A DNA stretch of 56,220 nucleotides. It comes from a virus. Of the stretch, positions 1 to 30,066 are shown piece by piece (the first letter of the stretch is position 1; each line of letters begins with the position of its first letter). The DNA lies in the UHGV virus genome UHGV-0008794. One strand, written 5' to 3'. Below the pieces are notes generated by a model. It was not told where the DNA came from. It saw only the letters and a program-made list of their open reading frames with translations, and searched no databases. The position numbers were made by a program, and so were the translations under genes.

Positions 1-74
1 ATGGAGATTTCCTACGTCCCCATTTCATACCAAGGACACCGTAGTGCATTAAATAGTCTGGATATTGGTACATG
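1..74 (-). CDS. MYQYPDYL-family small protein, 5' partial (only N-terminus in window; ATG at 72-74, gene runs off window start)
   Basis: Revcomp of 1-74 translates MYQYPDYLMHYGVLGMKWGRRKSP; nt 15-74 identical to 446-505 and 3483-3542; strong RBS GGAAGGAGGAATC just upstream (75-90). Confidence 0.6.
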
Positions 75-166
75 ATTCCTCCTTCCTATTTAATCTATTT
101 ACTTTTTCGATTTAGGAATTTGATCCAATCGAGATTGTATAATGCTAACTCGCTACGGAGTGTTGT

Positions 167-505
167 TTATAATAATTCAGGACCAGGGTTCTTTTTCTTA
201 TAACTTTTAATAAATTTATCAACATCTTTTGAAGACTTAAAGTTTTGTTTATCCAATTCTGACAATAAAACTTTACCGTAATTAGCTAGAGCCAATTGTG
301 ATTTTCCTTTTCTTATAGCAACACTATCATTAGCCATTTTGCCATAAGAAACGTTCTCTTTTCCAAACGTCTCGAATTTATTAATGTCTCTAGAATACTG
401 GCGCTTAACCTTGGCAACTTTCTTAGCAGCTCGGCGTTCACGTCTACGTCCCCATTTCATACCAAGGACACCGTAGTGCATTAAATAGTCTGGATATTGG
501 TACAT
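167..505 (-). CDS. MYQYPDYL-family small basic protein (112 aa)
   Basis: ORF track; conserved N-terminus MYQYPDYLMHYGVLGMKWGRRR; K/R-rich remainder; upstream CTGAAAATTCAG(AG)7TCAAATC leader instead of canonical SD. Confidence 0.7.
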   Translation of the reverse strand: MYQYPDYLMHYGVLGMKWGRRRERRAAKKVAKVKRQYSRDINKFETFGKENVSYGKMANDSVAIRKGKSQLALANYGKVLLSELDKQNFKSSKDVDKFIKSYKKKNPGPELL

Positions 506-547
506 GATTTGACTCTCTCTCTCTCTGAATTTTCAGGAGAGATTATC

Positions 548-763
548 CTAAACTCTCCAATTATCAGGAAGAATATCAGTTAACTTTAAATCTTTTGCTC
601 GTTTCTTTATCCATTTCTTTACAGCTGGCTTATTAACACCTCTACCATAAGAAGAAATGGCGTTTTTTAAATCAGATTTATTTCGTATAGGATAACCGCC
701 ATCAGACATAGCTTTTCCTTGCTTTGCCAACTTTTCTCGTTCTTCAGAAGAAAACTTAGTCAT
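548..763 (-). CDS. hypothetical small basic protein (71 aa)
   Basis: ORF track; compact spacing to TerL stop; RBS GGAGATAAG upstream. Confidence 0.5.
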   Translation of the reverse strand: MTKFSSEEREKLAKQGKAMSDGGYPIRNKSDLKNAISSYGRGVNKPAVKKWIKKRAKDLKLTDILPDNWRV

Positions 764-773
764 AGCTTATCTC

Positions 774-2519
774 CTATTCAAATGAATCTTTATTAAGTTT
801 ATATGCAATGTAAGCATCCATCATTGCTGCAACCGAGTCGATTTTATCGTCTCTACGCTGTTTTGCAAGCTTTTTGTTACCATTAGTATCTTCAATAGTA
901 ATACAATTACCCATGCAAAATTCCATCAATTCTTCATCAAATAAAAGAAGACGATTCTCAGCCAATTTCTTCAATTCACCTAAAGGAACCGATTCTGTTT
1001 TAGCTCCCTGAATAACTTTTTCTATTCCAAAAGGACCGTTCTCAGTTTGCCATCTCTGAACAAAATCTTTAGCATTATAAGGATCATACCCAAAAGCACA
1101 AACATCATATTCTTTTTCATTTATGAATTGATCGAGATCATCATAGACTTCATTCATATCTAAAGTTACACAATCAAGGACTATCAAAGACCCTTCATTC
1201 ATAAAATCTTCATATTTCAAACGAGTAGCAATAGAAAGTTTATTCATTGTATCAGATGAAATATAGCAACGGGTTTTAACGCCATACCGTTCTTTTGATA
1301 AAGGAAATAAAAAAGTAAAAGCACAGAAGTCATCGCCTTGCGATAAGTCGGCTCCCATAGCACATGGTAATTGCCAAAAATCACGATGACGATGAACTTT
1401 AGTTTCTTCGTAAGTAAAGAAGAATGTAAAACCTTCCATTGGAAGACCAAAACGCTTAGCAAGAATATCGTTACGAGCAGAAGGAACCTTCTCAGCACGT
1501 TCAACATCCAATTGATATGTTTCATAGGTAACGGTTTTACCAATATTTGGAGCAGCCTTCATCCACATTGATGGGTCGGCTACTTCTTGAACACTATCAA
1601 GTTTATAATACCAAATGGAAACATGCGGATTCTCGTATTCGCCTTTTAGAATATCCATAAGTTCCATTTTAATACTGTCGCCAACACCATTACGAACGGT
1701 TCCTTCCGAACTCGTAGCCACAATAAGCCAATCATCTAGTTTAGAAGCGCCTTGTTCTGTTGCACCCACAACATCTTCACGAGTGTTTCCGGATAGCCAT
1801 TCATCGATAGTCGTATACTTAGGTCGACTACCCTGGATCTTATCAATAGACATTGGTCGAGATTCCAAAAGGGAATTCGTAAGAAAGTTTTCAATTCCCT
1901 TTTTTGTTGAAGACAACTTAACTCTATCCGCTTTACTTCCCGTAGTATTCTGAAGAGAACCTTCTGTTAAGAACTTAAATACTGGGCCAAGAGATCTAGC
2001 AATAGCAGTTCTTATTGGTGCCAATACCTCATCTGCTTGAGCAAGCGTTGGTGCCATTGTCATCTGAGTAGTTGTTTCGGTGTCGACTACAAGTCCGTAA
2101 GCTTGAATCGACGATGCATACAAAGACTTGGCACTACCGCGAGAGACGATCAAATATTGTTTATTAATAAGTCGTTTTTTCTTACGTTTAAGAACGTAAC
2201 GACCACCATGACCATCTTCAAAAGGTTCATAAACAGAACGCTCAACGAAATAATACCAACCAAATATCTGTTCGGCCCACAACTTAAATGTATCAAGCAG
2301 ATGAAGAGATGAACCATCGGTTAATGTTAGTTCGTTTTCACAAAACTTAATATAACCTTCAACGGCTTTATCATCGTAATAGTAACGAGGATCTAGAATA
2401 AGATTGTCTATACGATTCATTTCCATTGACACTTCTCGGCATACCGGAATCTCCCCAGCTATAACAGCATCTCGGAATTGCCCGTAATAGATAGGAGTTG
2501 CAGTGTTTGAAAGTGTCAT
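774..2519 (-). CDS. terL: terminase large subunit
   Basis: 584-aa ORF; N-terminal ATPase with Walker-A-like VSRGSAKS; C-terminal acidic nuclease-like region; size typical. Start moved to ATG (M4) with AGGTGA RBS; track M1 is GTG. Confidence 0.75.
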   Translation of the reverse strand: MTLSNTATPIYYGQFRDAVIAGEIPVCREVSMEMNRIDNLILDPRYYYDDKAVEGYIKFCENELTLTDGSSLHLLDTFKLWAEQIFGWYYFVERSVYEPFEDGHGGRYVLKRKKKRLINKQYLIVSRGSAKSLYASSIQAYGLVVDTETTTQMTMAPTLAQADEVLAPIRTAIARSLGPVFKFLTEGSLQNTTGSKADRVKLSSTKKGIENFLTNSLLESRPMSIDKIQGSRPKYTTIDEWLSGNTREDVVGATEQGASKLDDWLIVATSSEGTVRNGVGDSIKMELMDILKGEYENPHVSIWYYKLDSVQEVADPSMWMKAAPNIGKTVTYETYQLDVERAEKVPSARNDILAKRFGLPMEGFTFFFTYEETKVHRHRDFWQLPCAMGADLSQGDDFCAFTFLFPLSKERYGVKTRCYISSDTMNKLSIATRLKYEDFMNEGSLIVLDCVTLDMNEVYDDLDQFINEKEYDVCAFGYDPYNAKDFVQRWQTENGPFGIEKVIQGAKTESVPLGELKKLAENRLLLFDEELMEFCMGNCITIEDTNGNKKLAKQRRDDKIDSVAAMMDAYIAYKLNKDSFE

Positions 2520-2582
2520 GGATTTCACCTACTTCATTATATTTTTTCTCAACTTTTTAATTCCGATTTTACACTACTATTT

Positions 2583-2622
2583 GTCAAGATAGGATTCGAA
2601 CCTATACTCCTTAAGGATTATA
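2583..2622 (-). pseudogene. tRNA-Leu-like 3' fragment (variable arm + T-arm + partial acceptor, no 5' half)
   Basis: minus-sense TCCTTAAGGAGTATAGGTTCGAATCCTATCTTGAC closely mirrors variable-arm/T-arm of the intact tRNA-Leu at 4526-4609; no matching 5' acceptor/D/anticodon arms. Confidence 0.35.
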
Positions 2623-2624
2623 CA

Positions 2625-2996
2625 TTAGATAAACCCTTTGGTTGCAAGAAATACAGCTCCAGCAGTACCAATAGCGCCGCCTGCTACTGTTGCAATAGAT
2701 CCGCGTTTTGACACTTCTTTATTCAATGCGTTTGCATATTTAGCAGTCAATAGTCGGCCATCAGATTTAGCCTTAGATATTACCTGATGATTTTTATTTG
2801 TGTCATGTTTAGCTCCTCCAGCTTTAACATCTTTTCGCCATTGAAGAGCTTCTTCATCAGAAATTCTAGATTCGCTTTTATTAAGACGTTTTGACATTTG
2901 CTTTTTAGACCGACCAATAAGTATCTGTCTACGTCTCTGTCCCCACTTCATGCCTTTAATGCCATGGTGAGCAAGATAATCTGGATATTGGTACAT
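2625..2996 (-). CDS. MYQYPDYL-family paralog with C-terminal glycine-rich TM segment (123 aa)
   Basis: N-terminus MYQYPDYLAHHGIKGMKWGQRRR; C-terminus VAGGAIGTAGAVFLATKGFI hydrophobic; (CT)5 leader upstream. Confidence 0.65.
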   Translation of the reverse strand: MYQYPDYLAHHGIKGMKWGQRRRQILIGRSKKQMSKRLNKSESRISDEEALQWRKDVKAGGAKHDTNKNHQVISKAKSDGRLLTAKYANALNKEVSKRGSIATVAGGAIGTAGAVFLATKGFI

Positions 2997-3020
2997 GATT
3001 TGACTCTCTCTCTGAATGTG

Positions 3021-3542
3021 TTATGCATTAGATAAAAGTTCACCAACGGTAAGACCGGATTTGGTTTTCTTTTTGGCGTATTTACCAAGAATATCGTCTA
3101 CGGATTTTTGCCCAGTATTAACGTAATTATCCCAAGCCTTTCTTTCAGAAATCTCCGACTTTCCACTCGGTATATTTGAAAGGTAATGATCCTCTAAACC
3201 TTCTTGCCATTTTCTATACGACTTACTTCCCTTTTCAAAAGGATTACTTTTATCACGGTCAGCTTGCTTTTTTGCTTTAGCCATACGTCGGTCAAAATCT
3301 TTTTCTGATTTATCAAAAGCTTTAGACCATTTATCACGAGATGATTTTACATTACTCTCATGCCTCGTATATTCGGACGTACCTCGAACAGCAGAATACG
3401 TATCACTAACTTGTTTACTGCGATTGTAAGCTTTATTAGCTACTTTTTTAATATGCTTTGCCGATTTTTTTTGAGCCCTGCGTTGTCCCCATTTCATACC
3501 AAGGACACCGTAGTGCATTAAATAGTCTGGATATTGGTACAT
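3021..3542 (-). CDS. MYQYPDYL-family paralog (173 aa from internal ATG)
   Basis: Track ORF starts earlier (MSVEGGIM..) but GGAAGGAGGAATC RBS directly precedes the MYQYPDYL ATG; first 57 nt identical to other copies. Confidence 0.65.
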   Translation of the reverse strand: MYQYPDYLMHYGVLGMKWGQRRAQKKSAKHIKKVANKAYNRSKQVSDTYSAVRGTSEYTRHESNVKSSRDKWSKAFDKSEKDFDRRMAKAKKQADRDKSNPFEKGSKSYRKWQEGLEDHYLSNIPSGKSEISERKAWDNYVNTGQKSVDDILGKYAKKKTKSGLTVGELLSNA

Positions 3543-3961
3543 GATTCCTCCTTCCACGGACAAGTATCATGCGGTTTACGAACAATAGGATCTGATGGGA
3601 GGAGACTCTGATTACCATAATGAATAGCTTCGTGTGTTTTGTGAGAAACACAAATTACGTTATCCATTGAAAAGATTAACGGATCACGATCTTCGATTTG
3701 TTCGGATGTTATAGGATTAATATGATGGATGATTATTCGCCCAACAATATTATAACCTTCAAGTCCCATATCAAAACCTTGATCACGAATGATTACAAGA
3801 TTGCGAAACGAACGCCATTCTTGCGACCAATACAAAGCTTGGTTAAGATATCGATCAAATCCAAACGTTTCGCTTCCAACACATCCATTCAATTTCAAAT
3901 ACTTAAATCGATCTGTATAGTTCTGGATTTTCATCAACTCAGAATAACTCTTCAATGTCAT
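3518..3961 (-). CDS. HNH homing-type endonuclease
   Basis: HNH signature GLEGYNIVGRIIIHHINPITSEQ...NVICVSHKTHEAIH (His-Asn-His with CxxH); start trimmed to internal ATG (M44) to avoid 150-nt overlap with upstream ORF. Confidence 0.7.
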   Translation of the reverse strand: MTLKSYSELMKIQNYTDRFKYLKLNGCVGSETFGFDRYLNQALYWSQEWRSFRNLVIIRDQGFDMGLEGYNIVGRIIIHHINPITSEQIEDRDPLIFSMDNVICVSHKTHEAIHYGNQSLLPSDPIVRKPHDTCPWKEESCTNIQTI

Positions 3962-4379
3962 TGTCGTCACTTCCACGATAACCACGAAATGCTTTAAGAG
4001 CATCTTCATAAAGTTTAAGGTTATCTTTCTCAGATTCGATCTTCGCGCTCTTTGCTTGAAGAAGTTCGTTTTCACTTTTAAGTTTTTCATTCTCCAATTG
4101 AGTTCGCGTCGAACCGAGTTTAAGATAATGAACTAAAACCGATGGACTTGCAGTGCCATCTAAAATTTGTTTTTCGGCAAGATCGATGGCTGCTGATATA
4201 AGTTGATTCTCTCTTGCTTCAACTGTCAAAGCTGGAGCTCGACGCTTCTTTTTAGCAGTTGCCACCGCTTTTCGCCTCTCTTTCTTGAAATTGTCGCATA
4301 CTTCTATAAAAGAACTTCCGAGCAGAAGACCGCTTTTAATGGGTTTCTTGAAAGGAGAAAAGGAGAACTGGGTCACCAC
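3939..4379 (-). CDS. putative small terminase subunit / DNA-binding packaging protein (basic N-terminal HTH-like region + C-terminal coiled coil)
   Basis: 146 aa; KKKRRAPALTVEARENQLISAAIDLAEK helix-turn-helix-like; leucine-heptad C-terminus; position next to HNH and tRNAs near terL. Confidence 0.3.
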   Translation of the reverse strand: MVTQFSFSPFKKPIKSGLLLGSSFIEVCDNFKKERRKAVATAKKKRRAPALTVEARENQLISAAIDLAEKQILDGTASPSVLVHYLKLGSTRTQLENEKLKSENELLQAKSAKIESEKDNLKLYEDALKAFRGYRGSDDNDIEELF

Positions 4380-4448
4380 TACCAGTTTTTGTTTTTAACT
4401 CGGAAGTTCTTTTATAGAAGTATGAAGGTGTAAACTCCAAAAATATGA

Positions 4449-4524
4449 TTGGTGCGGGGTGACGGATTCGAACCGACAACCAAGAGATTATGAGTCACCT
4501 GCTCCACCCTTGAGCTAACCCCGC
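4449..4524 (-). tRNA. tRNA-Met (anticodon CAT), CCA encoded
   Basis: minus-sense GCGGGGTTAGCTCAAGGGTGGAGCAGGTGACTCATAATCTCTTGGTTGTCGGTTCGAATCCGTCACCCCGCACCA; cloverleaf with anticodon loop CTCATAA. Confidence 0.8.
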
Positions 4525-4525
4525 A

Positions 4526-4609
4526 TTGGTACCTCCGATGGGATTCGAACCCATACTCCTTAAGGAAACGGATTTTAAGTCCGTCGTGTCTGCCGTTCCA
4601 CCACGGAGG
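4526..4609 (-). tRNA. tRNA-Leu (anticodon TAA), long variable arm, CCA encoded
   Basis: minus-sense GCCTCCGTGGTGGAACGG...GGACTTAAAATCCG...TTCCTTAAGGAGTATGGGTTCGAATCCCATCGGAGGTACCA; anticodon loop CTTAAAA. Confidence 0.8.
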
Positions 4610-4631
4610 CGATTATAGGAAGAATCGGTGT

Positions 4632-4994
4632 TTACTTTTGTCGCAACGAATACTTTCTAGTTGAAACGTCGTAAACTACAACATATTTTTCTTGTGCTTT
4701 CTTTATATACGAATTGGTAGTCTTTGCATAATGATTGGCGTATTTTTGAAGTTGTTTTGCATTATCTTGAGCATGTTTGATTTGAGCGTACTTTTGACCA
4801 TACGCAATAGGCCCAGCCTCTCGAGCAGAAGCATCACGTTTTTTTGCTTCTATTTTCCAGGCATTGGCCTTTTGTTGATACCGGTCTGCTTTCTTAGCCT
4901 TACGATTTAATCGTGAAGTTATAACCTTTTTACGTACACCCCATTTCATGCCTGGGATACCGTAGTGCATTAAGTGGTCTGGATATTGATACAT
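4632..4994 (-). CDS. MYQYPDYL-family paralog (120 aa)
   Basis: N-terminus MYQYPDHLMHYGIPGMKWGVRKK (diverged at a few nt); (CT)7 leader upstream. Confidence 0.65.
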   Translation of the reverse strand: MYQYPDHLMHYGIPGMKWGVRKKVITSRLNRKAKKADRYQQKANAWKIEAKKRDASAREAGPIAYGQKYAQIKHAQDNAKQLQKYANHYAKTTNSYIKKAQEKYVVVYDVSTRKYSLRQK

Positions 4995-5152
4995 GATTTG
5001 ACTCTCTCTCTCTCTGAATTTTCAGAGGAAAACCCTATCTCTAAATTCAAAATTCCATTTTGACCCCCGGAGAATTTTTGAAGACCCGCGCGATGAAGGG
5101 AGGGGGTATTTTTTGCGAAACCACCTCTCCCCCCACCTTTGAATAAGATATA

Positions 5153-5386
5153 TTATTCATCAGTAACTTTTTTATAGAAACCATCTGGATTCATTTGAAT
5201 GATTTCATCAATTGCATCTTCGACAGCTTGGTCTTGGGCTAAGTTGCCTAAGTCATTTGAAGTTATCGCAATCCTTGCTAAGTAACCTGATGTACAGTAG
5301 CCTTTTGATTCATCATAATTATACCATTCATCAAACTCTGTAATAGGATTGAAAGGATTATCGACAGTTGTTAGCATCACAGTCAT
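5153..5386 (-). CDS. small acidic hypothetical protein (77 aa), last gene of replication/RNAP operon
   Basis: ORF track; D/E-rich; tightly follows the RNAP-like gene. Confidence 0.5.
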   Translation of the reverse strand: MTVMLTTVDNPFNPITEFDEWYNYDESKGYCTSGYLARIAITSNDLGNLAQDQAVEDAIDEIIQMNPDGFYKKVTDE

Positions 5387-5398
5387 GTCTCATCCTTT

Positions 5399-8098
5399 CT
5401 ATACTGTAAGTGCTTTCTGAATAGTAGATGTTGAGACGCCAAGACTATCAGCTATCTCAGCAAGGGTATAACCATTAGCCTCAAGAGCTTTAGCTTTCGA
5501 TACTTTGCCTGGGCTCATGCCTTTAAACTCTCTAGGCATAGCTAACTGTTTAAGAGTATCTAGATCCGAGTTGTTGATGATCTGCTTAAGTTTGTTAGAA
5601 GAGATAGCACCAGCTTGAATAGCTTCCCATTCAGAAGACGTTATCTGTATCTGTTGTTTACCAGCCCCCGTTTTAGCACGAGCCTTAATAAGAGCTCTGG
5701 ATTTAAGCTTTTTAATATCATCACTATCTAGATTAGGATTTGCATCTCGTACAGCTTTAACTTCGGCATTGGCTAATAGCTGGGCCTTTCTTTCTAAAGG
5801 TCTATTCTTTAATGCTGTGTTAAGCTTAGCATCCAAAGAAGAAACCTCTTTGTTATACTTCTTCTTAGCCTCAGGAGAATACGGAATTGGCTTGGTATTA
5901 CGAGACTGGATACGGGCTTGATTTGCTAGTGATTTTAATTTATTAGCATGTTCAGCATATACACTTTCAATCATAGTTCCAGAAGACAAAGAATATGCAT
6001 CACTTGTGTCCGCCATCTTTGTAGTCTTCTGTAAACGAAGAACTTCTTTCCCTGATTTATTCGTGTATGTTTCGCCAGTCTCTCGAAATATCTTTTCACC
6101 ACGGTTATAACGCGTCAATTCTTCAGGAGTCATATTCTTAGTGCTTGTAATTTCTTTTCTTACAGGCACTCGTTTATCACCTGAAGCTCGAGAAATAAGA
6201 GTTGAAGCTCCTGCATTTTCTCGACCTTGATATTTCTTCTTCAAAGCGCGAATATTATTATCAATCTCCGATTGTTTATAATTTAAATTATGCTTCTCGG
6301 CATCAATAACAACCATTGAATGACGAACTGCTGCCGCAATTTCATTCGGATCCGCACCTCGAATAGTCATATCAGTAATTAGATTTGAAACATCGCCCAT
6401 TTGACGTTGTTTATTAAATCCAGAACCTTTATCGCCAGTACGAATCATTCCAGGATATGCTGGATATGAAACCTTAGGATCAAAATCTTTCAAACCTTTC
6501 AATGGATCTGACGTTCGAATATTCGCACCACTCATTGGAATAACAAGAACTGTATCACCATCAAAGTCCGCACCAGACAAACGCTCAGCAACTTTAGGAT
6601 TAATACCGACAGCATCTTTAGCATTATGAATAAGACTATTAGCCGTTTTATGCTTATTATTCACTGTAAGTTCAGGAATCTCAAATGTTCCTCCATGAGG
6701 ATATCGAACCAAAGCTACTCGTTCACCATTACGAAATGAAGGAGCATAAATCTCGGTGTCTTTCATATCAGGGAATGGTAAAATAACTTTGGATGCCTGA
6801 CGAGGAAGACCGGCAGCTTTTAGATGAACAGCAGCTGAATCGCAACCATCAGCAAATTTTTCAAGAAGCTGTTGTTTGATAATGGGATTCTCTAATTTTA
6901 TAATCTCATTATATTCTTCAGCTTTAAGATCATAAGCCAATTTCAATTGCTTTTTTGCAAGCATGGGAGACTGTTTAGATAACATCTGAGAAGATAAGCT
7001 TTTTCGCCAAACGTTCCAATCGCCTTCTTCGTTAACGATATTTAAAGCCGATTGCTGTTTTTTACCATTCTTGTCGATGTAATATCGCTGAGCCATGACT
7101 AAGCGATCTTCACCCTTAATGGTTGCGCCAAAAGGATTATCAGAATCTTTCTTCATAGGTTTTAAAACACTATGGTCTTTTTCTCCGAGCATCGGAGTTC
7201 CTTTAGATTTGTTAGTGTTAAAGACAATGTCAACGCCTTCGGGCATGTTATCGCTATACATAGCCATACCCTTAATATAATGAGTGCCATCAACAGCAAT
7301 TCGAACTTGAGCATAACGAGCGTTACCTAAGGAAATATCATCAACACCTCGACGAAGCTCAATAACGCCATCTTTATCGATGCCACCATCCTCTTTGTAG
7401 TTAATTTTAACTCGCTTAGAGGATATACTTACTGGAGCCTTTAAAGAATCATATGAAGTTCCTTTATCGCTCGAATGATATCCAGGAAATTCAATTTTGT
7501 CTCGATTCTTAGAAACTTCAGAATATGTAGTACCTGGTTTAGCAAGAACCATGATCGATGTTTTTTTACCAGTGCCCATCTGTTCGGTCTGAATATAATG
7601 TCGAGTATATCCTTCTTCTTCCAATTTACGAATTGAATTATCCAGAACGTTACGACTTACACCCATTTGATTCTCAACGCCACCGCCAACATCAATATAA
7701 CCTTTCTTGTCAACAGCTTTTTTAAGCACATCGGCAGTCATGGTTGTCTTGTTTGCGCGATCTGTAGCTTGAGGTTTCAAATAATTACGAACAGTAGATT
7801 CATTAGTTCCCATTTTTTCAGCAATAGCGACATTAGAATATCCTTTTGCTTTTAACTTTTGAGCTTCTGAAACTCTAGCTGCATATACTTCATTTCGAGC
7901 ATTAGAATATTGAGAACGATATTGTTTAACGGTTAGACCGCATGCGTCAGCAACTTCTTTCTCGCTAAGTCCGCTTTTCTTTAATTCATTAGCATAATTA
8001 TAAAAGTCCGAATCGCGCTGATATGGATCATCACCGCTTCCCCACGGATATCGACCGGAATGGCGCTTAGTGCCATAATGATATAGTTCATCAAACAT
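5399..8098 (-). CDS. putative single-chain two-barrel (multisubunit-type, YonO-like) DNA-dependent RNA polymerase with HTH modules
   Basis: 899 aa; VRYPHGGTFEIPEL...SGADFDGDTVLVIPMSG matches the universal beta-prime active-site segment (RQPTLHRLGIQAFEP...NADFDGDQMAVHVPLS); several sigma-region-4-like HTH stretches at N- and C-termini; start ATG overlaps upstream stop (TAATG). Confidence 0.5.
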   Translation of the reverse strand: MFDELYHYGTKRHSGRYPWGSGDDPYQRDSDFYNYANELKKSGLSEKEVADACGLTVKQYRSQYSNARNEVYAARVSEAQKLKAKGYSNVAIAEKMGTNESTVRNYLKPQATDRANKTTMTADVLKKAVDKKGYIDVGGGVENQMGVSRNVLDNSIRKLEEEGYTRHYIQTEQMGTGKKTSIMVLAKPGTTYSEVSKNRDKIEFPGYHSSDKGTSYDSLKAPVSISSKRVKINYKEDGGIDKDGVIELRRGVDDISLGNARYAQVRIAVDGTHYIKGMAMYSDNMPEGVDIVFNTNKSKGTPMLGEKDHSVLKPMKKDSDNPFGATIKGEDRLVMAQRYYIDKNGKKQQSALNIVNEEGDWNVWRKSLSSQMLSKQSPMLAKKQLKLAYDLKAEEYNEIIKLENPIIKQQLLEKFADGCDSAAVHLKAAGLPRQASKVILPFPDMKDTEIYAPSFRNGERVALVRYPHGGTFEIPELTVNNKHKTANSLIHNAKDAVGINPKVAERLSGADFDGDTVLVIPMSGANIRTSDPLKGLKDFDPKVSYPAYPGMIRTGDKGSGFNKQRQMGDVSNLITDMTIRGADPNEIAAAVRHSMVVIDAEKHNLNYKQSEIDNNIRALKKKYQGRENAGASTLISRASGDKRVPVRKEITSTKNMTPEELTRYNRGEKIFRETGETYTNKSGKEVLRLQKTTKMADTSDAYSLSSGTMIESVYAEHANKLKSLANQARIQSRNTKPIPYSPEAKKKYNKEVSSLDAKLNTALKNRPLERKAQLLANAEVKAVRDANPNLDSDDIKKLKSRALIKARAKTGAGKQQIQITSSEWEAIQAGAISSNKLKQIINNSDLDTLKQLAMPREFKGMSPGKVSKAKALEANGYTLAEIADSLGVSTSTIQKALTV

Positions 8099-8655
8099 TA
8101 CGCTTCCTCCGCTCTCAACTCGTTAATGCATTTATCAAAAGTGATAATCTTGTCCATAAGATGGAAAATATCATTTGGATCTGGAACTTCAATCACAACA
8201 TTGCCTGACTGATATATTCGCAATTCAGCTTCGATTTCATTTGGTTTGACATCGTACTCAAGACAAAAGTATGCCATATAAATTTCCAACTGAACCATGG
8301 ATACTTCACTAACACCAGTTTTCAAATCATGAATTCGAAGTTTGTTGTTTTTGAAAGATATGGCATCAGCAGTTCCAAATGCATTATTGGAATAATATAA
8401 AACTTTCTCGGGCTCCATTTTAAAGCCAATTGCATCGTTGACATAAGAATTCAAAGTCTGTCCAGTATCTTCGAGTTTAATCCCCAAAGAAATAAGTGAT
8501 GCAGCCAATTCATGAAGTTGAGTTCCACGCATTGCAGCCATATTATTAGAATATACACGAATCAATTTGTCTTCATCATAGTTTACCCAAGCATGATTAC
8601 TAGCACTAAGAAACGAATGTTGACCGCTAAGATTTGAATGATTGTTCCAACGCAT
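8098..8655 (-). CDS. putative nuclease (possible PD-(D/E)XK fold)
   Basis: 185 aa; D...IHDLKTG...E.Y motif arrangement; located in nuclease/helicase/polymerase cluster; weak. Confidence 0.3.
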   Translation of the reverse strand: MRWNNHSNLSGQHSFLSASNHAWVNYDEDKLIRVYSNNMAAMRGTQLHELAASLISLGIKLEDTGQTLNSYVNDAIGFKMEPEKVLYYSNNAFGTADAISFKNNKLRIHDLKTGVSEVSMVQLEIYMAYFCLEYDVKPNEIEAELRIYQSGNVVIEVPDPNDIFHLMDKIITFDKCINELRAEEA

Positions 8656-15680: not shown

Positions 15681-16499
15681 TTAACTAATATGAATTACCG
15701 GTTCGTCGTTATGATCTTCAGCTACAATATTCTGAGAAGATCCTGCATACGAAGCTGGTACTCGACAAATTTCATAATCACAGCCATTACGATCGTTACG
15801 AATCATAACAATATCCGGTTCGTCTTCATCGATCACTCCAAAGAACTTTTTGTAATCATTACCTACAAGTTCTTCTGGATTGTAAATCGGATCTTCTCGA
15901 TCATCTGTAAGAACATCATTACCTTCGAAATATGTCAGAGTAATCTTTTCATACCACTGCTGAGTGTTATGAAATTCTGCTGTATCGATAGGATAAGGAA
16001 GTTTTTGATCTTCTCGAGCTTTACGAAGAGCTTCTAGTTTTTCTTCGTTATCAAATTCCTCATTCAAATCCTCTTCGTTATCAAACTCTTCGGTGTGTGG
16101 ATTATAATATCCCTCTTCTTCTGGATGTTCTCGTTCGGCCATATGCTCGTCAAAGGCATCATCTTTAACCGCTTGGCTTACGGCATTCAATTCACTCCGA
16201 AGATCGCAATATTCGGTATTAACAGCTGATTTTCCATCATAAAATGATGTATAATCTACGAATTTATCATAGGAATTAGCCGCTTTATCGTAAGCTTCTT
16301 CGCTTTTTTTCTCTTCTTTAATCGCATTATCCATAAACTCATTAGCCGCACGAATACGCTGACGAGCAACTTCTCGATATTCATTAATTTCTTTTTGTGT
16401 TTCACGTGCAAATTTACTGCGTAGTCCAAAATATGTTCCAACTCCACCAGTAATTGCACCTGCCACAAAACCAATTGCAACTTTTACAACGGTATTCAT
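15681..16499 (-). CDS. hypothetical membrane-anchored acidic protein (N-terminal TM, 272 aa)
   Basis: N-terminal VAIGFVAGAITGGVGTYFG TM; AAAGGAGTTTGTTATG leader. Confidence 0.5.
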   Translation of the reverse strand: MNTVVKVAIGFVAGAITGGVGTYFGLRSKFARETQKEINEYREVARQRIRAANEFMDNAIKEEKKSEEAYDKAANSYDKFVDYTSFYDGKSAVNTEYCDLRSELNAVSQAVKDDAFDEHMAEREHPEEEGYYNPHTEEFDNEEDLNEEFDNEEKLEALRKAREDQKLPYPIDTAEFHNTQQWYEKITLTYFEGNDVLTDDREDPIYNPEELVGNDYKKFFGVIDEDEPDIVMIRNDRNGCDYEICRVPASYAGSSQNIVAEDHNDEPVIHIS

Positions 16500-16592
16500 A
16501 ACAAACTCCTAAAAGTACGTATACAGAGACGGGTAGTCAAGAATGTCCTGCTCGAATACCCCAGAACCAACGGAATTAAGACCGTCTCGCCT

Positions 16593-19447: not shown

Positions 19448-19712
19448 ACACATAAGATTCTTTTTCTTCTGGGAGTATATCGTTGATCGTCTTCAGTACA
19501 TTTTTGGTATCGTCGATAATATAATTTGCGACTTTATCGCCAATATAAGCACCAATAGCTCCAGTTCCAATCGCAACGGCAATTCGTTCAACAAGACCCA
19601 TGTTGGTCGGAAGAGCGGCACCAATGACTTTACAAACTACTAAACCAATACAACCGCTACTAATAAGACCCGCGCCATTAGCAATCGTTTCAACGTTTTC
19701 GATCTTCTTCAT
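19425..19712 (-). CDS. small glycine-zipper membrane protein (95 aa from internal ATG), trio member 2
   Basis: IGTGAIGAYIGD, CIGLVVCKVIGAAL; start moved to MKKIENV ATG with GGGAGTTTGTT leader (track start is upstream leader read-through). Confidence 0.55.
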   Translation of the reverse strand: MKKIENVETIANGAGLISSGCIGLVVCKVIGAALPTNMGLVERIAVAIGTGAIGAYIGDKVANYIIDDTKNVLKTINDILPEEKESYVSQEFHTL

Positions 19713-19781
19713 AACAAACTCCCTAAAAATAAAGAAGGAGAACTCTTTTCGAATTCTCCTTCTCTTTGACATGAATATAAC

Positions 19782-29929: not shown

Positions 29930-30066
29930 GGTTCTTTCTCCTTTCAAGAAATTTGGTGAAAAAATTAACACGACAAAAGTATAGCAGGACTCAGATCCTG
30001 CAGCTTCGTCCGTAGACGACGTTGTTCCGTTTTCAACTATATACTTTCCCCGCGTTAAAAAAGAAG

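Follow-up and report, generated by a model that had tools for sequence, protein, structure and literature searches.

Extended Shine-Dalgarno (SD) sites of Firmicutes, of the AGAAAGGAGG type, are purine-only tracts located 5-9 nt before the ATG and complementary to the all-pyrimidine tail of the 16S rRNA (...CCUCCUUUCU-3'). The genome of the gut phage UHGV-0008794, analysed here as one stretch of 56,220 nt (the window), encodes five paralogs with the DUF7211 motif, and three of them are preceded, on the minus strand, by a dinucleotide repeat, (AG)n, which shares with these sites its composition, its distance to the start codon, and its complementarity to such a tail. The repeat holds the slot of GGAGG-type sites in homologous leaders, and its predicted pairing energy lies within the range of the other genes of the phage. 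Unlike the Firmicutes sites, however, the (AG)n tract has no GGAGG core, pairs only with the distal UCUUUC of the tail by means of a G-U wobble, and is a perfect dinucleotide microsatellite with several equivalent registers. The balance of the evidence leans towards the tract being the ribosome-binding site (RBS) of the three paralogs, that is, a Shine-Dalgarno substitute in a duplicated, terminase-derived leader, and thus probably an unusual-looking yet ordinary piece of a copied leader.

Other described systems resemble this locus in part. As in bacterial contingency loci, a simple sequence repeat (SSR) stands beside the start codon of a multi-copy, recombining gene family, and the repeat number varies among paralogs, relatives, and near-identical strains. 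The (AG)n tract, however, lies neither between a -35 and a -10 element nor in a reading frame, its 3' edge is fixed and the spacing constant, the tracts are short, and the (AG)7 form is stable in eight assemblies. Campylobacter phages reportedly carry polyG tracts within coding regions, where they switch the reading frame of receptor-binding genes. These hypermutable tracts are also phage-encoded SSRs associated with a variable gene set, and relatives of the window carry G8-G10 at the equivalent site, but the tracts described here are located in an untranslated leader, at the ribosome-binding position. In leader hairpins that sequester the SD, such as RNA thermometers and other anti-SD/SD elements, an upstream CU-rich, anti-SD-like segment pairs with the SD, and a comparable segment can pair with part of the tract in two of the three copies. 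Contrary to those elements, the leaders of the window show neither a match in Rfam nor covariation, only part of the tract would be sequestered, and the remaining copy is predicted to have no such structure.

Position and predicted pairing of the (AG)n tracts

All coordinates are those of the plus strand, on which the repeats read (CT)n, whereas they read (AG)n on the minus strand, where the genes lie. The genes starting at ATG 505, 2996, and 4994 are preceded by (AG)7, (AG)5, and (AG)7, respectively, each followed by TCAAATC-ATG, so that the start positions and repeat counts of the original prediction are borne out. In copy 1, the start codon (CAT on the plus strand, 503-505) is followed by the spacer GATTTGA (506-512), (CT)7 (513-526), and CTGAATTTTCAG (525-536). 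Copy 2 holds CAT at 2994-2996, the spacer at 2997-3003, and (CT)5 at 3004-3013, followed by GAATGTG, while copy 3 holds CAT at 4992-4994, the spacer at 4995-5001, (CT)7 at 5002-5015, and an inverted repeat at 5014-5025. The 7-nt spacer TCAAATC is the same in the three copies, and AATCATG is invariant across all five paralogs. Runs of (CT) with at least five units occur at these three sites only in the 56,220 nt (CTCTCTCTCT gives 7 overlapping matches against 0.11 expected, a number equalled in 0 of 100 shuffles).

The inverted repeat CTGAAAATTCAG, with arms of 5+5 nt and a 2-nt centre, has exact matches in the window at 525-536 (copy 1) and 5014-5025 (copy 3) only, both read on the minus strand; its last AG is at the same time the first repeat unit, and it is homologous to CCTGAA-N3-TTCAGG in relatives. 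The original prediction had considered it missing from the (CT)5 copy, which holds for the left arm only, the right arm TTCAG having survived at 3012-3016. Immediately upstream of the inverted repeat, copies 1 and 3 carry a CU-rich, anti-SD-like flank (AUCUCUC at 537-543 and UUUUCCU at 5026-5032, respectively). The TGA inside CTGAA is in frame, and the tract is therefore untranslated; a translated repeat, which would encode an Arg-Glu run, was ruled out by an in-frame TGA or TAA upstream.

The two remaining paralogs were expected to use a strong canonical RBS. Their leaders do carry GGAAGGAGGAATC, at 3543-3555 for paralog 4 (gene 3021-3542; predicted duplex -15.1 kcal/mol) and at 74-86 for paralog 5 (predicted duplex -17.1 kcal/mol), both on the minus strand, but the latter starts at ATG 73, not at 74; it encodes 124 aa and crosses the circular junction to the end of the window.

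The other genes of this phage show the consensus GAAAGGAG(G), which points to a Firmicutes-type 16S tail (...CCUCCUUUCU) in the host. Among the SD windows of 67 of them, AAAGG is found in 29, GAAAGG in 19, and GGAGG in 14, and the frequency of the first two suggests that the host makes use of the UUUC stretch of its tail. Duplex energies were thus predicted against GAUCACCUCCUUUCUA, an assumed Firmicutes-type tail supported by the phage consensus. The (AG)7 leaders reach -11.5 kcal/mol, within the top 1.7% of 3,000 random positions (background median -4.1), and the (AG)5 leader reaches -9.7 kcal/mol (top 3.7%), compared to a median of -10.2 kcal/mol for the 67 other genes. The contiguous core of this pairing, AGAGAG:UCUUUC, comprises 6 bp, including one G-U, and amounts to approximately -6 kcal/mol. 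Owing to the repetition, this core can form in several equivalent registers, with aligned spacings of 3, 5, and 7 in all copies, to which n = 7 adds 9 and 11; the strong SD sites of this genome have aligned spacings of 4-8, with a mode of 5. The sequence AGAGAGAG is present at -15 to -8 in all three copies, in register with AGAAAGGA of the usual site. Since the 3' edge of the tract is anchored 7 nt from the ATG, changes in n lengthen only its 5' side, leaving the spacing between SD and start unchanged. With pairing predicted and the tail assumed, the tracts combine tail complementarity above background, the spacing of an SD, and positional homology with canonical SD sites; ribosome binding at the tracts and the identity of the host 16S tail are both inferred from these features.

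The positional homology comes from 74 distinct leaders of MYxYPDYL-type (DUF7211) genes from relatives, in which the slot 5-10 nt upstream of the ATG was compared. GGAGG-type sequences occupy it in 15 of the 74 leaders; G7-G10 runs or interrupted forms of them (GGGGAGGGG and GGGGGGAGGG) occupy it in another 14, in a different lineage; and (AG)4-8 is found in 12 leaders, in the lineage of the window itself. In many of the leaders, AGAGAGG follows directly after the terminase stop codon. Canonical tracts at the slot include GGAGG, GGGAGGGGG, and AGAGAGG in relatives and GGAAGGAGG in paralogs 4 and 5, and a canonical core is also present inside interrupted forms such as GGGGAGGGG. Leaders of relatives such as TTCTTAACATTCTCCTGAATAATTCAG-G9-TAACCACAA-ATG indicate that the inverted repeat of the window (CCTGAA-N3-TTCAGG in those leaders) and the purine tract are both homologous. 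A purine tract is kept at SD distance in every lineage, while the flanks diverge. At the position equivalent to copy 3 (~4995-5030), two relatives (L115:55 and L127:1860) hold other leaders, with neither the inverted repeat nor an AG repeat, which read AGAAAGTGTGTGAAGCC-ATG, with a short GT repeat, or AGAGGATGTGAAGCC-ATG.

Together, position, register, duplex energy, and homology to the canonical SD sites of relatives make the GA-rich SD substitute the best-supported reading among those contained in the original prediction. Several observations weigh against it. The contiguous core, at only about -6 kcal/mol, is weaker than GGAGG-type pairing, the value of -11.5 counting interrupted pairing; both the host and the 3' end of its 16S rRNA are assumptions; and in copies 1 and 3 part of the tract may be hidden by a predicted hairpin. 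Moreover, standard RBS models miss the tract, and a public gene caller took an internal Met as the start of copy 3. Plain SD function gives no explanation for the concentration of SSRs at DUF7211 starts, for which common descent of the leaders could account. In 1.38 Mb of related loci, 15 of the 20 distinct runs of G>=8 and 11 of the 44 runs of (AG)>=4 are located at most 15 nt upstream of a DUF7211 start. Shared leader descent explains much of this concentration, and selection for mutability may also contribute to it.

The public gene call mentioned above (L126:1917-2255, equivalent to 4632-4970 of the window) starts at the internal Met9, giving a protein of 112 aa labelled 'DUF7211 weak', rather than at ATG 4994, which gives 120 aa; apparently, automated RBS models do not accept the (AG)7 leader. 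Starts located behind (AG)n would thus be missed by gene finders trained on GGAGG-type sites, and a microsatellite SD pairing with the distal UCUUUC would be a useful annotated example for Firmicutes phages. In the closely related strain L137, the ortholog of paralog 4 (L137:953-1363; window 3021-3542) has a gene call of only 136 aa, against 173 aa in the window, and may have been truncated by the single substitution of this region.

Other expression signals were also searched for at the three sites. A search for sigma-70-like promoters on either strand at 500-545, 2990-3030, and 4990-5035 gave none, with no -35/-10 pair spaced 16-18 nt around the repeat. A sigma-70 promoter with the repeat as its spacer, antisense included, was considered and rejected; a TTGACT at 509-514 on the plus strand has no -10 at a usable distance. 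No intrinsic terminator is present at the sites, where purines and not a U-run follow the stem, and an Rfam search gave no family at the tracts, only the two tRNAs reaching the threshold.

Probable origin and spread of the leader module

The five paralogs share a 25-residue Pfam motif, DUF7211 (MYQYPDYLMHYGVLGMKWG.RR), followed by unrelated, basic C-terminal parts; a literature search gave no paper mentioning this domain. Those behind the (AG)n tracts, all on the minus strand, are paralog 1 (167-505, 112 aa), paralog 2 (2625-2996, 123 aa, starting 24 nt past the stop of paralog 4), and paralog 3 (4632-4994, 120 aa). The similarity among the paralogs extends over an 87-nt module comprising the leader and the first ~22 codons, with its reference copy at 450-536 (minus) and the others at 18-104, 2941-3027, 3487-3573, and 4939-5025. 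Judging by their alignment, the three (AG)n sites are copies of this one module, homologous to one another, and not three independent events.

Leader and coding part of the module have different affinities. Copies 1 and 3 have a leader in common, whereas the first 66-71 coding nt of copy 1 are 100% identical to those of copies 4 and 5. This coding identity among paralogs 1, 4, and 5 (450-536, 3487-3573, and 18-104) contrasts with their differing leaders and C-terminal parts, and a 20-mer of the N-terminal coding region, ATGTAYCAATATCCAGAYTA, is kept in phages with terminases only ~75% identical. Such identity suggests that these N-terminal codons are either homogenised by gene conversion or constrained at the nucleotide level.

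In alignment, the leader corresponds to the 3' end of the large terminase gene (TerL) and its junction to the downstream DUF7211 gene (ATTCTTTTGAATAG-AGAGG-TAAC versus ATTCTCCTGAATAATTCAG-G9-TAAC; more fully, ...CTTAATCGAGATTCTTTTGAATAG-AGAGG-TAAC for the end of the terminase and ...CTTAAC-ATTCTCCTGAATAATTCAG-G9-TAAC for the leader). According to this alignment, the left arm of the inverted repeat would descend from the last codons and the stop codon of the terminase, and in one relative (L111) it still overlaps the TerL stop codon. In contig ERZ1034897.77, TTTGAATAACCT(AG)5TCAAGTC follows the terminase stop, and TTTGAATAACCT(AG)4TCAAGTC is found at a second, non-terminase site. From these alignments, it seems that the leader was copied from the terminase 3' end together with the junction, and then spread among the paralogs by duplication and recombination.

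Traces of such events are present in the window and its relatives. A 30-nt fragment of tRNA-Leu (2588-2617), 93% identical to 4537-4566, is located 7 nt past the stop of paralog 2, mirroring the intact tRNA-Leu placed 21 nt after paralog 3, and looks like the relic of a segmental duplication of a unit made of leader, DUF7211 gene, and tRNA. Leaders and gene bodies also re-assort, so that in 85%-identical relatives the bodies follow different leaders. Contig L082 (ERZ27287004 k141_515782, 4630 nt, from another sample), compared with 450-5025 of the window, has the copy-1 leader, located after a 71-aa gene, joined to the copy-3 body, and its ends overlap by 141 nt, which makes it circular in the assembly graph. 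Such an arrangement suggests that, in another strain, the region was tandemly duplicated, excised as a circle, or subjected to gene conversion over the leader and N-terminal module.

In the mechanism proposed here, a leader from the 3' end of the terminase, a purine tract, the fixed 7-nt spacer, the ATG, and ~22 conserved codons would constitute a portable leader module, copied among the DUF7211 paralogs through segmental duplication and recombination. The tract would function as a degenerate, multi-register SD, whose AGAGAG would pair with the 3'-terminal UCUUUC of a Firmicutes-type 16S rRNA at the same distance as GAAAGGAG, and its repeat number would shift through replication slippage. The differences in length would be mostly tolerated variation and not a switch, given the anchored 3' edge and the presence of at least AGAGAGAG in every copy. 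The comparative data also illustrate how a leader can arise from the end of the gene next to it and then spread together with its paralogs.

Repeat-length variation and alternative explanations

Repeat lengths were surveyed in part of the contigs carrying these proteins, merging near-identical places, and were read from consensus assemblies, which hide minority alleles. In the (AG) lineage, relatives show n = 3, 4, 5, 5.5, 7, and 8, while in the poly-G lineage G8, G9, and G10 are found within groups with identical flanks, and one relative (L098) has AGAGAGAGG where its orthologs have AGAGAGG. Polymorphism between close strains is directly visible in L137, a Hadza-gut contig 99.91% identical to the window over 3,372 nt, which differs by one substitution and by (AG)6 in place of (AG)5 at copy 2. 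By contrast, eight independent assemblies, among them a 94.6%-identical strain and two recombinants, all show exactly (AG)7 in the leader bearing the inverted repeat. Two characteristics of contingency loci are therefore present, an SSR adjoining expression signals and a polymorphism in repeat number between close strains, and repeat length appears to drift by slippage, slowly, rather than to act as a rapid switch. The original prediction had proposed the repeat as a substrate for slipped-strand variation. This holds on an evolutionary scale, as the strain difference and the range of n = 3-8 or G8-G10 illustrate, but not for a fast on/off switch, given the same (AG)7 in eight assemblies and the 3' edge fixed 7 nt from the ATG.

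A slippage-tuned translational rheostat has also been considered, in which the CU-rich flank would pair with the first repeats, leaving the SD to protrude from the hairpin to an extent set by the count of AG units, the gain or loss of a unit altering the expression of the paralog in a heritable and reversible manner. The predicted RNA fold of the inverted repeat comprises 4 bp and a 4-nt loop, extended where the initial ~7 nt of the tract pair with the flank (AUCUCUC in copy 1, UUUUCCU in copy 3, and UUCUCC in poly-G relatives), at approximately -10 kcal/mol, and a hairpin is predicted in every copy bearing the inverted repeat. The predicted cost of opening the SD window decreases as n rises, being 10.0, 6.2, 3.5, and 2.3 kcal/mol in copy 1 for n = 6, 7, 8, and 9, and 9.6, 5.6, 4.8, 3.2, and 0.9 kcal/mol in copy 3 for n = 5 to 9. 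The natural n = 7 thus falls on the steep part of the curve, and the model assigns ~2 kcal/mol to each repeat unit through occlusion by the hairpin, in copies 1 and 3 only. In silico, mutation of the flank abolishes the opening cost, while mutation of the left arm alone does not. The corresponding analysis of a poly-G leader (L001) was discarded, as it is confounded by upstream tRNA sequence that pairs with the G-run in the model. The concentration of SSRs at DUF7211 starts and the natural (AG)5/(AG)6 polymorphism between strains 99.9% identical are also consistent with this reading, as is the greater length of the tracts with an inverted repeat (n = 5.5-8) compared to those without it (n = 3-6, in the lineage of the window and the AGAGAGG leaders). 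An exception to this trend is L076, the nearest poly-(AG) relative outside the lineage of the window, which has (AG)7 with no inverted repeat.

Nevertheless, several observations argue against such tuning. The (AG)7 form is the same in eight assemblies of different samples, the 94.6%-identical strain among them, and the only polymorphic copy, copy 2, is the one with no hairpin. Copy 2 and several relatives do without the left arm. Across 16 leaders, compensatory changes are found in 0 of the 9 stem pairs, the core stem being invariant, and the fold z-scores range from -2.1 to +0.9, mostly non-significant, including those of copy 3 and the relatives, so that neither covariation, z-scores, nor Rfam indicates a conserved structured leader. 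Slippage is far less frequent in tracts as short as (AG)5-7 than in the long ones of classical contingency loci, and the consensus assemblies surveyed cannot reveal minority variants. A translational control function of the (AG)n leader is consequently a prediction of the thermodynamic model only, and the rheostat is regarded as doubtful. It is unlikely, too, that the microsatellite and its anti-SD-like flank form, as (AG)n or poly-G depending on the lineage, a slippage-tunable rheostat maintained specifically on the recombining, multi-copy DUF7211 family beside the packaging genes, in the manner of contingency loci for translation initiation. If true, it would represent heritable, reversible tuning of translation initiation by slippage in a phage, acting on a rapidly recombining family.

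The derivation of the leader from the 3' end of TerL also allows for an alternative with no function at all, where tract and palindrome would be slippage-expanded leftovers of the TerL-end junction, carried along with the genes, and translation would depend on coupling or on weak SD-independent initiation. The short intergenic distances of copies 2 and 1 (24 and 42 nt, respectively) would permit coupling, and the SSR-free leaders found at the same site in relatives (L115:55 and L127:1860) fit such dispensability. However, copy 3 keeps its tract with no translated gene immediately upstream (a gap of 159 nt), every lineage has kept the purine tract at SD distance despite diverging flanks, and its pairing energy is typical of real genes, all of which make a functionless remnant improbable. 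A site acting at the DNA level seems more improbable still. According to this explanation, the palindrome CCTGAA-N2-3-TTCAGG and the purine tract would be the promoter or start region of a YonO-like polymerase, or the operator of a dimeric regulator, heading the packaging and structural genes. The arms of the palindrome are invariant over the 16 leaders while its centre varies (AA, AT, CAA, TAA, TTA, and TTG), its first copy is located just downstream of a polymerase gene and of a probable genome end, and no sigma-70-type promoter was found there; furthermore, the promoter recognised by YonO is undetermined (PMC5467207). This explanation is at odds with copy 2 and several relatives, which retain both tract and gene but have no left arm, and with the origin of that arm from the TerL stop codon, which it still overlaps in L111. 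The second copy of the palindrome lies mid-operon, 42 nt after the upstream gene, the spacing of 2 or 3 nt would be awkward for a dimeric protein, and only two exact copies are present in the 56 kb.

Genome context and neighbouring genes

The window is the full genome of a gut phage, its circle being closed by a 100%-identical ENA contig of 56,361 nt (56,220 + k = 141). Its credible genes are nearly all on the minus strand. The DUF7211 paralogs adjoin TerL (774-2519/2528), and an HNH endonuclease gene, the portal and protease genes, and the genes for tRNA-Met and tRNA-Leu (4450-4610) are also located near them on the same strand.

A megablast of 1-8200 against phage records gave as its sole match 180 nt of 'Siphovirus contig89' at 75% identity, so the phage has no annotated close relative among those records. 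Terminases 63-81% identical are encoded by eighty IMG/VR contigs, and several human-gut contigs are ~85% identical to the window in DNA. The sole hint at the host, which points to Firmicutes, comes from relatives in bins of metagenome-assembled genomes labelled Bacillales, Clostridiales, and Pseudobutyrivibrio, comprising four such contigs only and subject to unreliable binning. An exact-match scan of viral contigs for GAGAGTCAAATCATGTAYCA gave no match.

The polymerase gene mentioned above (5399-8098, minus) encodes an 899-aa protein that matches PHROG 4291, 'RNA-dependent RNA polymerase', of the YonO-like two-barrel type, over its full length; it contains GADFDGD and holds helix-turn-helix domains at both ends, and a PDB sequence search gave no match for it. 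Its N-terminus (ELYHYGTKRHSGRYPWGSG) looks by eye like the DUF7211 motif, although a Pfam scan of this N-terminus gave no DUF7211 match. If the likeness were true, the motif might be a common tag, for example for capsid packaging.

Six contigs from six different samples (L130-L135) stop at one identical base, ...ACCCCCTCCCTTCAT | CGCGCGGGTC. This common end, at ~5093 (within 5040-5152 of the window), is located 60 nt past the stop of a 77-aa gene and 68 nt upstream of the inverted repeat of copy 3, and a G/C-rich element with pieces similar to those near it is also found in the distant relatives L021, L029, L069, and L071. It is probably a physical genome end (cos site), which would fit the nearby HNH and terminase genes.

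At 29975-30047 (minus), ARAGORN reports a tRNA-like gene whose two-base anticodon is undetermined, and for which the Rfam tRNA model remains below threshold. The early region (16-31 kb) holds several repeated leaders and intergenic modules, for instance at 16475-16514, 19688-19727, 16738-16977/29105-29344, and 20041-20077/30152-30188/30297-30333. Two genes there are preceded by TCACCAAATTTCTTGAAAGGAG and at least six by GGAGTTTGTT-ATG, and the region also contains one 240-nt repeat and one 37-nt repeat in three copies.

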